Source of the DNA: Pseudomonadota bacterium
GTDB lineage: Bacteria; Bdellovibrionota; Bdellovibrionia; Bdellovibrionales; Bdellovibrionaceae
Assembly (NCBI GenBank): GCA_041178425.1
Contig: JBEGVH010000030.1
Span: forward strand, 224,001-288,000
Direction of reading: 5' to 3'
Length of the DNA stretch: 64,000 bases
Positions 11,690 to 16,336 of the stretch are shown piece by piece. Below the pieces are notes generated by a model, which had not been told where the DNA came from, searched no databases, and was given only the letters and a program-made list of their open reading frames with translations. Numbering within the stretch: the stretch's first letter is position 1; the number at the start of each line of letters is the position of its first letter. The position numbers and the translations under genes are program-made.

Positions 11690-12641
11690 AGAGAGCATTT
11701 AGCTCTGCAATAAATTTTTTCACCTCGCCCATAAAAGCAGAAATTATCTCGGGCTTGTCAGGTTGGATATGCGCGCCCGGGAGGGTGACTAGTTTTTTAG
11801 GTTCTTTCAAATTATCAAAGAGGCCGCTTTGCGATTGCGGAGGAAAAACCGTATCGCTCTCACCGTTAACAACTAAGAACGGCCCCTTCAGGTGAGACAC
11901 ATGATTTTTTGGTTCTAAAAACCAGGTTTGCTGTCGAATAACTAACTTAGAAACCTCTAATTCATTAGAACCCATATTTTTTATTAGCTCACCACCAATA
12001 ACCTCAGCGATGTCGACACCACCATAACCAAATACCGTCGCGCGAGAGAAGTAGCCTTCTTGGTTGAGAAATCTCTGCGCCAATGGATAAAACAAAGTAC
12101 CAAAGCTCACTGTGATGACATTAATTTTTTTATTGTCGATATAGGGTTGTTGATGTAGCCACGCCAAGCCCACACTCATAAGCAGTGGAATCATTTGCAT
12201 GCGGGTCCAATCCCACTGAACTAAACCATTATTATTTTTAAACGGCCAAGGATACTGAAACCCAACATAGACGGAGTTTTCTGGATCGCCAACGAGATTG
12301 ATTGCGTCACTCCCTGTTTGAAAGCCCGTAAAGAGGACTAATGCCGAGAGTGGAGGGCGAAAAGTACTCGGAAACTTCATGACCATGGAAATCTCGGGAT
12401 AACCTTCTGCTTTGAGGCGAACAGTTTGTAAAACAAACTTTGAAGATGTCTTATTTTCGATTGCGCTCACCACAAATTTTGGTAAGCCCTCGGTGACTTT
12501 ATAAAACTGTTTAATTTTATCGAACGACTCTTCTGTCGAAGGGTCGGCAGGCATTGGCGGTACATCCAATTTTTTTCCATAAACCTTAAACCCTAAACCG
12601 CAAACCAAAACAAAAGTGCAAAAAAACTTAACTTTGCTCAT
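11688..12641 (-). CDS. Secreted alpha/beta-hydrolase-fold protein
   Basis: Signal peptide; VITVSFG nucleophile-elbow-like Ser, VNGESDTVFP Asp, LPGAH His. Confidence 0.65.
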   Translation of the reverse strand: MSKVKFFCTFVLVCGLGFKVYGKKLDVPPMPADPSTEESFDKIKQFYKVTEGLPKFVVSAIENKTSSKFVLQTVRLKAEGYPEISMVMKFPSTFRPPLSALVLFTGFQTGSDAINLVGDPENSVYVGFQYPWPFKNNNGLVQWDWTRMQMIPLLMSVGLAWLHQQPYIDNKKINVITVSFGTLFYPLAQRFLNQEGYFSRATVFGYGGVDIAEVIGGELIKNMGSNELEVSKLVIRQQTWFLEPKNHVSHLKGPFLVVNGESDTVFPPQSQSGLFDNLKEPKKLVTLPGAHIQPDKPEIISAFMGEVKKFIAELNAL

Positions 12642-12732
12642 GGGAACAGACTACCAAAACTCCCTCCCAACGAGTCTCTAAAAACATCTCCACTTTCTCT
12701 TTTTCACCACACCAGCCAAAAAAAGGCTCACC

Positions 12733-12929
12733 CCCTGTAGGCCGCACAAGCCGATGACGACGCCAACGACGATGCCAACGACGAGGACGGCACCTCCTCC
12801 GCATCATTTTTCGCTCCAGAATCGCCGTCATCGAGGCGGCGAGGAAGAGGCGCGGAGGCCTACTCCCTGTAGGCCGCACAAGCCGATGACGATGCCAACG
12901 ACGAGGACGGCGATTCTGGAGCGAAAAAT
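12733..12929. repeat. GC-rich REP/REPIN-like composite repeat (GTAG type)
   Basis: Direct repeat CCCTGTAGGCCGCACAAGCCGATGACGA...GCCAACGACGAGGACGGC at 12733-12791 and 12865-12911. Perfect 24-bp inverted repeat 12806-12829/12906-12929. GTAGGCC (12737)...GGCCTAC (12857). Confidence 0.75.
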
Positions 12930-13163
12930 AGATTTGCCCTGAGGGTGGCGTTCCCCCAGGGCGGGCTTAAGAGTCGAGGTCTGTGGGCGACGACTCAAAA
13001 AACTCTTTAAATTTCTATCAGGGAAGGTTAGAGCGTCGTCATTCTGATGTTCGCTCTCAAGATGCTTTTTCCCTATCAATTTTTTTACGCCACTCTAACC
13101 CTCGAGGTAGAAATGCTCCAAGTTAGCGCCCATGAGTAAGCACAGGTGCTTAGAGCGATCGAC

Positions 13164-13991
13164 CTAGGCAAGCAACTTCAGGGCCACCGCTGGCAACTGA
13201 TTAGCTTGGGCCAAGACAGACACGGCGGATTGCTGCAATATATTTGCAGAGGCCATTTCTGCTGACTCCCGAGCTACGTCGGTGTCGCGAATTCGAGAAT
13301 TCGCAGCACTTAAGTTCTCGTGTTGCACATCTAAGTTACTCACGGTTGCAAATAATCTATTTTGAATGGCACCAAAATTCGCTCTCATCGATCCAATTTT
13401 TACGAGAGCGTCATCGACAACTTCCAATGTATCGCGGGCTCCACCTTTGTCGGATATATCAAGATCAGAGATACCAATGGCTTTAGCTGTGGCATCTGTT
13501 GAGAGATCGTAGGAGACTCTGTTTTCGTTTCCACTAAAGGCTCCCACATGAAATTCCATTTTTCCGCCAGAACCATCGAGGAGAGTTTTTGCTCCAAATC
13601 GGGTGGTTTTAGCGATTCGATCTGATTCTTGAACGAGATGCTTTACTTCTTGATTGAGAAATCCTCGTTCGGTTTCACCAATGTTGTCGCTGGCCGCCTG
13701 GATTCCCAGTTCGCGCAAACGAATGAGGATATTACTAATCTCATTGAGGCCGCCCTCAGAGATTTGGATAGCCGATCCAGCGTTGTAGGCATTATTTCGG
13801 GCCTGACTTATCCCCCGAATCTGCCCTTTCAAGCTTTCCGAAATCGACAAACCTGCTGCATCATCGGCGGCATTAACGATTCGACTGCCCGATGACAATG
13901 CTTGAGCCGCATGTTCCGCCCGCTTCTGCTGGTTACTTAAAACCCGCTGGGCGCTAATCGACGCCATGTTAGTGTTTATTCTTAAGCCCAT
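13164..13991 (-). CDS. fliC: Flagellin (275 aa)
   Basis: MGLRINTN, LSSGSRIVNAADDAAGL, RANFGAIQNRL, SRIRDTDVA and LAQANQ motifs; AGGAGG RBS. Confidence 0.96.
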   Translation of the reverse strand: MGLRINTNMASISAQRVLSNQQKRAEHAAQALSSGSRIVNAADDAAGLSISESLKGQIRGISQARNNAYNAGSAIQISEGGLNEISNILIRLRELGIQAASDNIGETERGFLNQEVKHLVQESDRIAKTTRFGAKTLLDGSGGKMEFHVGAFSGNENRVSYDLSTDATAKAIGISDLDISDKGGARDTLEVVDDALVKIGSMRANFGAIQNRLFATVSNLDVQHENLSAANSRIRDTDVARESAEMASANILQQSAVSVLAQANQLPAVALKLLA

Positions 13992-14185
13992 ATGTTGATC
14001 TCCTCCTTCAGAGATTTAGCGATACCTTGCCGACCGAGAATTCCACAGCTCTCGAGCGACAAGCGTGTTCGATGAACACAAAATTGTTTTTGTTTATGTG
14101 TTGAGAAGAGATCTTGGGATTTGCTACTCGTTGTTACTGCTGAACGAGGAGTTTTCCGTTGAGGTCTTCGTCATGCACGTATTAC

Positions 14186-14212
14186 TTCTCGGCGAAGGTC
14201 CAGGAAACTTTA
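14186..14212 (-). promoter_or_regulatory. sigma28 (FliA) promoter of the first flagellin
   Basis: Minus strand TAAA-N15-GCCGAGAA versus consensus TAAA-N15-GCCGATAA; implies a leader of about 190 nt. Confidence 0.85.
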
Positions 14213-14296
14213 GGGCCAAAGTCTAGGTTTTTTTGGGCGCAGCGCATCTTGTGATTGAAATGACTAACTTTTGAATTGAAAAATATTTTAGCCAAA

Positions 14297-14327
14297 GGTC
14301 TAGGTCTAGCTCGACTAGACCTAGACC
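14297..14327. repeat. Perfect 13-bp inverted repeat (terminator or operator)
   Basis: GGTCTAGGTCTAG-CTCGA-CTAGACCTAGACC between the two flagellins. Confidence 0.7.
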
Positions 14328-14368
14328 AAGGTGGGTTGGGGCGCTACAAAAATTGATTAGAAATTATT

Positions 14369-15196
14369 CTAATCGAGCAGTCTCAGTGCTGACTGCTCCA
14401 AGATGTTAGCTTGAGAGAGAACTGCGATCTGATATTGAGTTTGAATTTTTCCTTTTGTCATTTTTGTAACGGCATCAGCAACATCGGTATCCGCCATTTT
14501 TGATCGCGCCTCTTCAATGCTGATTTCATGCGACAAGAGATGATCGACAGCATGCTGAAGTCTCGACTGAAGCGAGCCAAAAGAGGCACGAGCGACTCCT
14601 ATTTTGGAAAGTGCTTCATCAAGATCTGCGATGGCGTCAACAGCATCGTCCTTGTCGGCAAGGCCTAAGTGGTTGAGCCCCAGCGAATCAGAGGAAGTAT
14701 TGGCTTCGAGAGAATAGGAAATTTTATTTTCTTTCCCTCCGTAGGCGCCCACTTGGAATTCAAATTTTTTTCCACTACCAATGAGCAACTTGTTTGATCC
14801 GAACTGGGTGGTTTTTGATACTCGATCTACTTCACTGCTCAGTTGCTGAAACTCATCGTTGAGCATTTGGCGTTCAACATCAGACACGGTGTCACTGGCT
14901 GCTTGGATGGCCAATTCTCGCAGACGAATAATAATATTATTTTGTTCGTTAAGCCCGCCTTCGGCCACTTGAATAAGCGAAATCGCATTGTCAGCATTCA
15001 AACGTGAGGCCCTAAGGCCACTCGCTTGTCCGCGCAAATGTTCGGAAATGGAAAAACTCGCAGGATCTTCATCGGAAGTGGCCAAGCGTGAGCCCGATGC
15101 TAATTGAGCCATGGCGCGATTGGTCTCGGCCTGGCTGCCTCTCATGTATTTAATAGCCGACAAAGCAGCCATGTTAGTGCCTATGCGAAGGCCCAT
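14369..15196 (-). CDS. fliC: Divergent flagellin paralogue (275 aa)
   Basis: Start moved to ATG 15196 (GGAGGG RBS; MGLRIGTN). QVAEGGLNE, RLRELAIQAASDT, RASFGSLQSRL and DTDVA motifs. Confidence 0.92.
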   Translation of the reverse strand: MGLRIGTNMAALSAIKYMRGSQAETNRAMAQLASGSRLATSDEDPASFSISEHLRGQASGLRASRLNADNAISLIQVAEGGLNEQNNIIIRLRELAIQAASDTVSDVERQMLNDEFQQLSSEVDRVSKTTQFGSNKLLIGSGKKFEFQVGAYGGKENKISYSLEANTSSDSLGLNHLGLADKDDAVDAIADLDEALSKIGVARASFGSLQSRLQHAVDHLLSHEISIEEARSKMADTDVADAVTKMTKGKIQTQYQIAVLSQANILEQSALRLLD

Positions 15197-15400
15197 TGGA
15201 ATCCCTCCTACGTTGTCTGTTGCCCAACAGATCAAGGTGAGGGTCGCCCACAGAATTTAAACTCTCGTTCAGCAGTAAGGTCCATAGTATTGCTGCGCAT
15301 TGTTATTGTAAATAAGTTTTATATGCACCCCGTTAAGTAAATGAAATCTATTTGGAATTTATTTACCAAAAAGAAACAACGTCTTCACTATGCAGAAAGC

Positions 15401-15560
15401 CTCTCCCTCTTTGCGGGGTAATTAAAACAGCGATAACTTCGGGACGGCCATTCCATGGCCTCCGCCGGCGTGGCCTGCCCCGTTGGGGCAAGGCCAACAC
15501 ATCACGTTCGCCGGAGCCCGAATTTCTTCGCTGTTTTAATTACCCAACTAAGAGGGAGAG
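15401..15560. repeat. 160-bp palindromic MITE/REP-like element
   Basis: Terminal inverted repeats 15401-15411/15550-15560 and a perfect 18-bp pair 15416-15433/15528-15545. Internal hairpins GGCCATTCCATGGCC and TGGCCTGCCCC-GTT-GGGGCAAGGCCA. Confidence 0.8.
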
Positions 15561-15586
15561 ATGCCTGCGTTTTGGCTAAACTTAGA

Positions 15587-16336
15587 TTAAGCTTCGATAA
15601 AGCTGCCGCCTTGATCATCGAGCTTATAAACGGAGGTGCGATTATTGAGCCAACTGCCAAGATTGACAGATTTAATGACTCGGTTTTCAAATTCGAACGA
15701 GTATTCATCGAGAACATGAAAGTGGCCTGTGATAACAAACTGAGAGCGATCTCGATCGGCAATCGCGCGAGCGTATTCGCGAGAAAGAAGTCGTAAATAG
15801 TCTTGTTGGTCTTGCCGTTGCACACGACTTTTTTTGGAAGAGGCTTTACTCATTTGAGTTCCAACCCAATCCCAGAACCCGCCGGGAAGAGTGTGGGCCA
15901 ACTTCTGCATAAACGGAGAGCGAATTTTCTTTCGATACTTCAAGTAAGCTTCATCGCGCAAATTGATTTCATCCCCATGAGCCATATGAACAATCCAGGG
16001 CCCCATAGGCATTGATAGAGGGCCGGTTAAAACCGTGGCGCCCATCTTTTGCTCCCAAAAAGGGGCAATATGAACATCGTGATTACCTTCAAAGTAGATA
16101 AGTTGAAGACGGTGTTTTTTGGTGAGAGACTCAATGGCCTTAATAATTGGATTCCATCGTTTCACAAAAACTTCGTGATCGCTGATCCAGAGATCAAAAA
16201 TATCACCCAAAAAACACAGATGCGTTACCGATCCTTGGGGTTGCTGCCACAACGAAAGCAAAAAGCGCAACAGCTTTTGACTGTTGCGCTCTTCCATCGA
16301 TTTTAAATGTAGATCTGAAATAAAGTAAGCCTGCAA
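15587..16336 (-). CDS. lpxH: UDP-2,3-diacylglucosamine diphosphatase (metallophosphoesterase)
   Basis: FISDLHL, LGDIFD, EGNHD, HGD, GHFH and NLGSW motifs. Confidence 0.88.
   Translation of the reverse strand: MQAYFISDLHLKSMEERNSQKLLRFLLSLWQQPQGSVTHLCFLGDIFDLWISDHEVFVKRWNPIIKAIESLTKKHRLQLIYFEGNHDVHIAPFWEQKMGATVLTGPLSMPMGPWIVHMAHGDEINLRDEAYLKYRKKIRSPFMQKLAHTLPGGFWDWVGTQMSKASSKKSRVQRQDQQDYLRLLSREYARAIADRDRSQFVITGHFHVLDEYSFEFENRVIKSVNLGSWLNNRTSVYKLDDQGGSFIEA

Follow-up and report, generated by a model that had tools for sequence, protein, structure and literature searches.

Candidate RNA pairing between the leader of one flagellin mRNA and both untranslated regions of a neighbouring flagellin paralogue in the Bdellovibrionaceae

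Two flagellin genes, here designated fla1 and fla2, are situated on the minus strand of a 64-kb stretch of the Bdellovibrionaceae contig JBEGVH010000030.1 (hereafter the window), which derives from a 3.06-Mb genome (G000) that is 100% complete by marker genes. A first-pass annotation of this DNA had noticed that the leader of fla2 is complementary to both untranslated regions (UTRs) of fla1. The locus therefore raises the question of whether these matches represent RNA pairing between the products of two paralogous genes, repeats that act as DNA, or coincidence. The data presented below argue that the fla2 leader probably pairs, as RNA and in trans, with a hairpin in the fla1 5′ leader (hairpin A) and with the loop of a hairpin in a terminator-bearing module of the fla1 3′ UTR (the C element). 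The segments of the fla2 leader that match these two elements are termed site 1 and site 2, respectively. Coordinates are collected in Table 1, and the genomes of relatives are denoted by G numbers.

The matches themselves are as first described. Positions 15264-15278 are the exact reverse complement of 14134-14148, and allowing for one bulge gives a match of 20 of 21 nt (15259-15278 against 14128-14148); positions 15243-15254 are the exact reverse complement of 12980-12991. The first of the fla1 segments had been assigned to a leader transcribed from a sigma28 promoter, and such a promoter is indeed read at 14212-14186. Folding predicts both of the hairpins that had been drawn in the fla1 leader and 3′ UTR, and it also recovers the possible anti-Shine-Dalgarno (anti-SD) segment of the fla2 leader, in a predicted helix of CCUCAC (15242-15237) with AGGAGGG (15209-15203). 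Each of the two complementary words occurs in only two places in the whole genome; they are thus unique to the locus and are not genome-wide repeats. Within the window, the 15-mer was matched three times with up to two mismatches (0.16 expected) and the 12-mer twice with up to one mismatch (0.09 expected). Among the seven complete flagellin genes of the genome, such matches were found in the fla1/fla2 pair only.

It is apparent that these observations could reflect a chance match, or motifs that are conserved independently of each other and do not interact. The genome contains nine exact inverted repeats of at least 15 nt with a spacing of 400-2500 nt, as compared with 4, 4, 7 and 8 in four block shuffles, so the 15-mer repeat alone is modestly above chance at most and is unremarkable genome-wide. 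A 15-mer repeat with a 12-mer repeat beside it was found once in the genome, at this locus, and in none of the four shuffles. Single-sequence duplex energies (RNAduplex) also speak for chance and against pairing, as a value of –38.8 kcal/mol was reached by 33 of 1000 dinucleotide shuffles and one of –43.2 by 103 of 1000 (z about –2 and –1); such energies are not usable as evidence. Cofolding gives the expected helices, with free-energy differences (ddG) of –14.1 and –16.3 kcal/mol. Given the unimpressive repeat counts and energies, the matter is undecided from the window alone, and it is the relatives that decide it.

The DNA search covered 40 relatives, and the first comparison set consisted of 24. 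Local complementarity was scored between each fla2 upstream region and each fla1 leader and 3′ UTR, and cognate pairings were compared with pairings swapped between genomes, with one genome per genus and 20,000 permutations. For site 1, the cognate mean was 41.25, against 28.6 (standard deviation 1.19) for swapped pairings (n=20), and no permutation of the 20,000 equalled it. The corresponding values were 37.05 and 29.8 (1.0) for the fla2 region against the fla1 3′ UTR (n=19, 0/20,000), and 35.36 and 24.92 (1.23) against the 59-nt segment containing the C hairpin (n=18, 0/20,000). The cognate partner ranked first at site 1 in 14 of 24 genomes and among the top three in 21 of 24; G011, G012 and G034 failed, and the G022 alignment is spurious.

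Similar results were obtained with genomes held out of that set. Four were spotted with a loose pattern, GACTGCTG-N8-38-TGTGGG, situated 2.2-2.5 kb upstream of a C-element match, and both matches were present in all four. Across 151 genomes, this pattern was about as frequent as its control, so it is unusable for counting and served only to spot those loci. A second held-out set comprised 20 genomes of further genera, 17 of which had a complete fla1 and C element; nine of the 17 also had the upstream paralogue in the stretch. In these nine genera, the cognate and swapped means were 38.3 and 28.4 (1.8) for site 1 (0/20,000) and 33.7 and 25.8 (1.7) for site 2 (1/20,000), with seven of nine cognates ranking first at each site. 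This replication is independent of the set in which the pattern was first seen.

The first-pass annotation had called for a search for compensatory changes in orthologous loci, and such changes were found at both sites and across genera. In three genomes of the same genus, with the same gene order and approximately 70% coding identity, conservation of the fla2 leader, hairpin A and the C element greatly exceeds that of the coding sequence. Both sites are retained there, and the differences are compensatory. G000 has UUACU/AGUAA and the other genomes of the genus UGACU/AGUCA, a double change; in G001 a G-C pair has become A-U on both sides (GCUAAAC/GUUUAGC), and G003 has one G·U pair. At site 1 in other genera, the helix takes in all 17 of 17 nt in G017 and G036, 16 nt in G030 and 15 nt in G038, and in G007 it is 16 nt long and unrelated in sequence; with G·U pairs included, it reaches 18-19 bp in G039 (18 bp with two G·U pairs), G040 and G008. 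Site 2 reads GGGCUAC/GUAGCCC in G039 and G030, shows a correlated one-base deletion in G007 and G034, and takes the form of a shifted 12-13-bp helix in G040 and G028, of about 30 bp of different sequence in G008, of a different 19-bp helix in G022, and of yet another helix in G038. With conservation and covariation seen and the words unique, the objections that the first-pass annotation had foreseen, a lack of conservation and motifs repeated throughout the genome, do not apply.

Site 1 and hairpin A are both absent from G034, an order-level relative (loci L037 and L045), and appear to have been lost together. The fla2-type mRNA of G034 would begin directly with site 2. Hairpin A is otherwise a conserved hairpin in the relatives, with a variable stem and a loop of the CAGCAGUCA type. 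In most other genera (e.g. L012, L024, L028 and L038), the fla1 leader has a second hairpin whose loop is also CAGUCACC and which is absent from the genus of the window; the GUGACUG at the 5′ end of fla2 could therefore pair with two loops.

Independent conservation of two motifs cannot yield complementarity that is specific to cognate partners while the sequences themselves change, and it is disfavoured by the permutation tests. It also leaves unexplained the correlated 1-nt deletion in G007 and G034 and the joint loss in G034. Coincidence, which the counts and energies for this single genome would have allowed, is regarded as scarcely credible.

Complementary segments of DNA are also inverted repeats, and the first-pass annotation had offered as its second reading that they flank an invertible segment; they might equally be two operators of one DNA-binding protein. 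The 15-mers do flank a segment that contains the fla1 promoter and the fla2 gene, and recombination sites would likewise co-vary. The mismatches within the helices provide one means of distinguishing these readings from RNA pairing. When all mismatches were penalised alike, the interior mismatches at the two sites amounted to 21 G·U, 4 A·C and 5 transversions (15, 2 and 2 at site 1, where 19 of 24 duplexes passed the cut-off, and 6, 2 and 3 at site 2, where 21 of 22 passed). A milder mismatch penalty over-extended the alignments and was discarded. Counting by hand, with one genome per genus, gave about 14 G·U against 4 A·C. Identity at the DNA level would give both kinds of transition equally often, so the G·U bias points to an RNA helix; DNA identity also leaves the tolerated bulges unexplained.

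Further data speak against a function of the repeats as DNA. As the first-pass annotation had already remarked of the vicinity, no recombinase was found: a family search detected none among nine neighbouring proteins (an SMC/RecN-like ATPase, one protein without a family, a hydrolase, the two flagellins, a metallophosphoesterase, FtsZ, FtsA and FtsQ). The check for inverted junctions that it had suggested was made on metagenome contigs of runs X1, X2 and X3, which span 12875-15466 or parts of it in the reference orientation; no inverted joint was present, a weak result in that contigs can hide rare variants. Gene order and orientation were constant among the relatives examined, with no inverted arrangement; G024 and G005 are examples of complete genomes with this layout. 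The match in the 3′ UTR has no role in a switch, and other genes intervene between the repeats in three genomes, where the spacing is 4-5 kb. DNA inversion is not supported by these data, and a DNA-level role of either kind is highly improbable. The comparison of sequences across these genomes is regarded as establishing that the complementarity of the fla2 leader to the two fla1 UTR elements is maintained by selection, at the level of RNA.

Pairing of RNA could also take place within a single molecule, if a fla2-fla1 read-through transcript folded its 5′ end onto the internal fla1 leader and onto its own 3′ end. Here, and in 19 of the 24 relatives first compared, fla2 and fla1 stand in tandem with the same orientation, and the hairpin that follows fla2 (14297-14327) has no directly following T run, both of which would suit such a transcript. 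Against it, fla1 has its own strong, conserved sigma28 promoter, and the complementarity persists where the genes are apart. In G008, G010 and G035, the flagellin genes are separated by 4.1-4.8 kb that contain two or three open reading frames (ORFs) on the opposite strand; both sites still pair in G008 (18 bp and about 30 bp) and in G010, and G035 retains site 1 and a weaker site 2. The two genes are on different contigs in G022, which retains site 2 only. Conservation of the match across opposite-strand genes favours pairing in trans, and folding of a read-through transcript is considered very unlikely.

Both of the fla1 pieces required for pairing in trans correspond by position to published small RNAs (sRNAs). 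Karunker et al. (2013) reported eight attack-phase sRNAs in Bdellovibrio bacteriovorus HD100 (PMC3627812), including APsRNA3 (561,854-561,981; FliA promoter; 14,726 reads per kilobase per million, RPKM) and APsRNA4 (3,500 RPKM), and their Table S1 places Bd0604 at 562,130-562,954. G101 reads the same as the published HD100 sequences at those coordinates, and fla1 is orthologous to the G101 gene at the published position of Bd0604/fliC1. When placed by means of the data in that paper, APsRNA3 covers the initial 128 nt of the fliC1 leader, from a conserved ACGTTGG to a closing CTCCAAC and a T run, and APsRNA4 is the fliC1 3′ UTR, up to or including the C hairpin. The match in G101 to R1, a covariance model of the C element, lies at 563,027-563,120 and overlaps the range given for APsRNA4 in Table 2 of that paper. 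The APsRNA4 sequence in Fig. S1 of the same paper runs from the Bd0604 stop codon to the C-hairpin loop, and the Table 2 coordinates are approximately 30 nt further downstream. On this placement, the counterparts of both fla1 pieces accumulate as abundant sRNAs in a relative. By position and architecture, the 5′ domain of the fla1 leader in the window (14098..14180) would be the equivalent of APsRNA3.

In PMC3627812, APsRNA3 and APsRNA4 appear as intergenic orphans: 'no significant homology' was reported beyond B. bacteriovorus, and no targets are named. These sRNAs represent the same elements in a related bacterium; their connection with flagellin UTRs, the conservation throughout the family and the pairing partners do not feature in the paper. 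No fla2-type partner was found in HD100 by pattern searches of G101.

The first of the two readings in the first-pass annotation, that the fla1 UTRs, or sRNAs derived from them, pair with the fla2 leader, is supported at the level of sequence comparison: the complementarity is conserved and covarying, biased towards G·U, and survives separation of the genes, and the pieces correspond to abundant sRNAs in HD100. The purpose that the annotation proposed, the setting of flagellin order or stoichiometry, is conjectural.

The element of the fla1 3′ UTR merits description in its own right. The C element begins 152 nt after the fla1 stop codon, and R1 has a single match in the genome of the window. 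In an alignment of 29 copies, 86.8% of the cells were paired (72.7% when shuffled), and 13 of 14 base pairs showed compensatory changes, so that covariation supports both the hairpin and the terminator. R1 matched 119 of 151 genomes of the family, representing 40 of 41 genera, nearly always in single copy. Comparison of the whole window with Rfam 15 gave no match at the gathering score, and the region 12000-16000 gave two chance-level snoRNA matches at E≤1.

Within the C element, the linker between the two hairpins is the exact reverse complement of a part of fla1 itself, namely nucleotides +3 to +12 (Table 1). This start word was present in 31 of 37 distinct fla1 orthologues (and offset by one base in a thirty-second), as compared with one of 33 paralogues, the N-termini of which are similar. 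Synonymous codon choice is frozen in fla1 (GGC-TTA-AGA) and varied in the paralogues; G035 shows a compensatory double change, with TTG in the gene and CAA in the linker, and G054 and the AGG variants have G·U in the linker-start pairing. Pairing at the start region of a gene blocks initiation, and the 3′ UTR module is predicted to mask codons 2-4 of fla1 through the linker, in cis or in trans.

The fla1 start word is also copied beside site 2 in the fla2 leaders of G010 (GGCTTAAGAGT), G008, G007, G012 and G050, and the complementarity of these leaders extends from the C-element loop through its 3′ arm to the linker. The fla2 leader could consequently compete for the linker. It is conceivable, then, that the leader is a sponge, a decoy for the two fla1-derived RNAs that would relieve the predicted block of the fla1 start by the 3′ UTR module; the mirroring of the fla1 start word in the linker, and its frequency in orthologues as against paralogues, would accord with this, as would the copies in the fla2 leaders of several genomes. 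In the genus of the window, however, pairing of the fla2 leader takes in the loop and no more than 5-6 nt of the 3′ arm and does not extend to the linker, and the same pairing would serve the regulation of fla2 equally well. A sponge as the function of the match is judged unlikely.

Several points weigh against the proposed pairing and should be set beside the evidence above. The permutation figures overstate the significance, since related genomes do not provide independent data. Site 1 fell below the cut-off in G011, G018, G012, G022 and G034, and site 2 is weak in G011 and interrupted by an internal mismatch of 2-3 nt in G049 and G072. Transcription of site 1 from +1 of fla2 rests on a predicted transcription start site (TSS). 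The APsRNA3 of HD100 has no hairpin A, so that the equivalence with the fla1 leader domain rests on position and architecture. R1 matched 32 of 32 genomes of genus g10, and the C element is far commoner than any fla2-type partner found; no convincing fla2-type leader was detected in two g10 genomes (the flagellin upstream regions of G013 were scanned, and G101 was covered by pattern searches only). Finally, blocking of the two sites in silico raised the mean unpaired probability of the SD sequence from 0.35 to 0.46, with clear opening in only five of 17 genomes and in none of the genus of the window.

The wider distribution of the C element implies that pairing with fla2 is not its only role. 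Scans upstream of other flagellin genes in G013, G029, G033, G019 and G016 gave nothing convincing as a fla2-type partner. For an 11-mer that complements the C loop, two further exact copies were found in G101, but these lie inside long ORFs and were discounted.

If the fla2 leader pairs in trans as proposed, the fla1 pieces, either as processed sRNAs or as the whole fla1 mRNA, would bind the fla2 mRNA at about +1 to +20 and +25 to +36. Such binding would tie the output of fla2 to the transcription of fla1, without Hfq or ProQ and beside a CsrA-FliW system, and the coupled output is predicted to balance the building blocks of the flagellum. As to the sign of the effect on fla2, the balance is roughly even for repression or co-degradation, the arguments for which are the precedent of FlaX acting on flaB (see below), the long perfect helices, and the repressor-like contact that the module would make with the fla1 start. 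A lesser but appreciable possibility is that pairing stabilises the fla2 mRNA at its 5′ end or opens the helix that sequesters the SD sequence; it would be supported by pairing from +1, which protects the mRNA 5′ end in other systems, and by the in silico opening of the sequestered SD, with site 2 occupied, in the five genomes referred to above. That the leader would serve mainly as a sponge is the least probable of the three outcomes. A more elaborate and doubtful arrangement is one in which the fla2 leader is a splint that holds the 5′ hairpin and the 3′ UTR hairpin of fla1 together, with the linker closing over fla1 codons 2-4, in a three-way mRNA clamp that needs no chaperone. If this were true, each flagellin message would set the translation of its paralogue by direct mRNA-mRNA contact, with no dedicated sRNA gene, and flagellins would be ordered post-transcriptionally along the filament of Bdellovibrio-like predators.

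Pairing of this type belongs to a known kind, in which an RNA derived from a flagellin UTR acts on the leader of a paralogous flagellin (FlaX/flaB, 2024). FlaX of Vibrio cholerae, as described in PMC11879080, is a flagellin 3′ UTR RNA with the promoter and terminator of its own gene, and it pairs with several conserved sites in the 5′ UTR of the paralogue. The C element likewise lies within a flagellin 3′ UTR and ends at an intrinsic terminator, and its complementarity to the 5′ UTR of a paralogue is an exact 12 nt here and cognate-specific in 18-19 genera and in the nine held-out genera. There is no sequence relation between FlaX and this locus, which belongs to a different phylum. Unlike the situation with FlaX, the 5′ leader of the same fla1 mRNA supplies a second partner here, which would act on the extreme 5′ end of the target. 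FlaX is approximately 265 nt in length, released by RNase E and stabilised by ProQ (PMC11879080), whereas neither ProQ nor Hfq has a Pfam match in the complete genome of the window, which in this respect departs from FlaX and FliX. FlaX has been shown to repress through a ribosome standby site (PMC11879080), whereas any effect of pairing at the present locus is a prediction.

Escherichia coli FliX, from the fliC 3′ UTR, and MotR, from the motA 5′ UTR, are similarly sigma28-dependent, UTR-derived RNAs that act on flagellar synthesis (PMC10578931). As presented there, RNAs of this class pair within coding sequences, including those of ribosomal protein mRNAs, and Hfq is among the keywords of the paper. 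E. coli has a single flagellin, and hence no cross-talk between paralogues. Mechanistic precedents exist in other genes and organisms. Pairing at the extreme 5′ end of an mRNA is known for FasX-ska and RoxS-yflS, and 5′-3′ UTR pairing within one mRNA for icaR. Site 1, at the predicted +1 of fla2, resembles the former two, and the linker against its own start region resembles the latter; these likenesses are precedents for the mechanism only.

The CsrA-FliW system referred to above is represented in G000 by csrA and fliW side by side (C16:36600-36758 and C16:35796-36152), and the fold of the fla1 leader presents GGA in a hairpin loop and a GGA-rich SD sequence, which would be candidate motifs for CsrA binding. 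Control of a flagellin leader by CsrA and FliW also occurs in Bacillus subtilis hag. The control of Campylobacter flaA by CsrA-FliW (PMC4894983) is an interaction of protein with RNA, as opposed to the RNA-RNA complementarity considered here.

The order of genes on the minus strand is ftsZ, a metallophosphoesterase gene, fla2, fla1 and a hydrolase-like gene. The most conserved flagellin of the family is fla1, its orthologues in relatives being 63-87% identical; fla2 is a divergent paralogue directly upstream of it. The leaders are approximately 185 nt (fla1) and 85 nt (fla2) in length, and anti-SD helices similar to that of fla2 are predicted in other genera.

Table 1. Positions, within the window, of the features of the fla2-fla1 locus
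Feature	Position	Strand	Description
fla1	13164..13991	–	ORF; 275 aa; Pfam Flagellin_N and Flagellin_C
fla2	14369..15196	–	275 aa; ATG at 15196; Pfam Flagellin_N and Flagellin_C
fla1 sigma28 promoter	14186..14212	–	TAAAGTTT-N11-GCCGAGAA; read from the sequence; same promoter conserved in relatives
fla1 leader 5′ domain	14098..14180	–	first ~80 nt; long-range closing stem; fold z –2.3
Hairpin A (fla1 leader)	14127..14148	–	CUCGUU-cagcaguaac-AACGAG; predicted fold; partner of site 1
fla1 nt +3 to +12 (codons 2-4)	13980..13989	–	GGGCUUAAGA; exact reverse complement of C linker UCUUAAGCCC (12972-12963)
C element (fla1 3′ UTR module)	12920..13012	–	covariance model R1, single match in genome; fold z –3.7
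C element, hairpin	12996-12971	–	
C element, 14-nt loop	12990-12977	–	holds the partner of site 2
C element, linker	12973-12963	–	CUCUUAAGCCC
C element, terminator hairpin	12962-12936	–	G+C-rich; T run
Site 1 (fla2 leader)	15259..15278	–	predicted first ~20 nt of fla2 mRNA; complements 5′ arm and loop of hairpin A
Site 2 (fla2 leader)	15243..15254	–	complements loop of fla1 3′ UTR hairpin
SD-sequestering helix (fla2 leader)	15203..15242	–	anti-SD, inner hairpin and SD; minimum free energy and centroid folds
fla2 sigma70-like promoter (candidate)	15284..15312	–	TTTACA, 17-nt spacer, TACTAT; consensus scan, 9 of 12 positions

A sigma28 promoter usually precedes the upstream paralogue in other genera, and the complement of hairpin A starts about 8 nt after the –10 element. 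The published TSS of Bd0606 has the same spacing from its promoter (PMC3627812), so that site 1 is the predicted extreme 5′ end of the fla2 mRNA. On the basis of this spacing and of the Bd0606 TSS, the start of fla2 in the window is placed at about 15276-15278, which would put both sites inside the transcript. The fla2-type genes of the genus of the window and of G008 have lost the sigma28-type –10 of the other genera and have a sigma70-like promoter instead, with the transcribed leader retained (15284-15312; L002-L004; L041); in the window, this candidate promoter would likewise give a TSS at about 15276-15278. In run X3, a variant strain differs at 13 positions just upstream of the fla2 leader (15282-15445) and at none within it (15224-15281).

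Two other sequence features of the locus were observed. The words CTAGACC and CTGGACC recur around sigma28 promoters (14297-14327, 14195-14235 and the fla1 promoters of relatives) and are conserved across genera; they form a perfect 13-nt palindrome after fla2, and copies are found just upstream of, and within, the –35/–10 spacer. Binding of a protein, or an extension of the promoter, might account for them. The flagellin pair is flanked by two palindromic repeat elements of approximately 160-200 bp (12724-12929 and 15401-15560), with arms at 12806-12833/12902-12929 and 15401-15433/15528-15560. In three runs, the depth of the contigs rises about threefold across 15416-15512, and about a dozen similar inverted repeats with a spacing of approximately 110-130 nt are present elsewhere in the genome; the flanking elements look like a family resembling miniature inverted-repeat transposable elements (MITE) or repetitive extragenic palindromes (REP). 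A search for RNA sequencing runs that contain the locus listed none. Run X9, which is labelled metatranscriptomic and is probably DNA, contained two short contigs within and just after fla1, and was not used.

What is new, relative to the Vibrio example, is the phylum, the lack of the usual chaperones, and the targeting of neighbouring sites, one of which is the predicted extreme 5′ end of the target, by pieces from both the 5′ leader and the 3′ UTR of a single mRNA. To these may be added the complementarity of the linker to codons 2-4 of its parent gene and the placing of APsRNA3 and APsRNA4 within flagellin UTRs, which gives them candidate partners; full-text searches of the literature found no paper that describes these features or links these two Bdellovibrio sRNAs to flagellin UTR pairing. 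The Bdellovibrio filament is described in PMC2791853 as containing several flagellins in a fixed order. The locus described here offers a concrete RNA mechanism, present throughout the family, by which the order and amounts of flagellins might be set, and it provides candidate partners for two sRNAs that have been orphans since 2013. If the fla2 leader does pair in trans with the two fla1 elements, as is considered probable, the logic by which a flagellin UTR acts on a paralogue in Vibrio would also have arisen in a distant phylum, without Hfq and ProQ.

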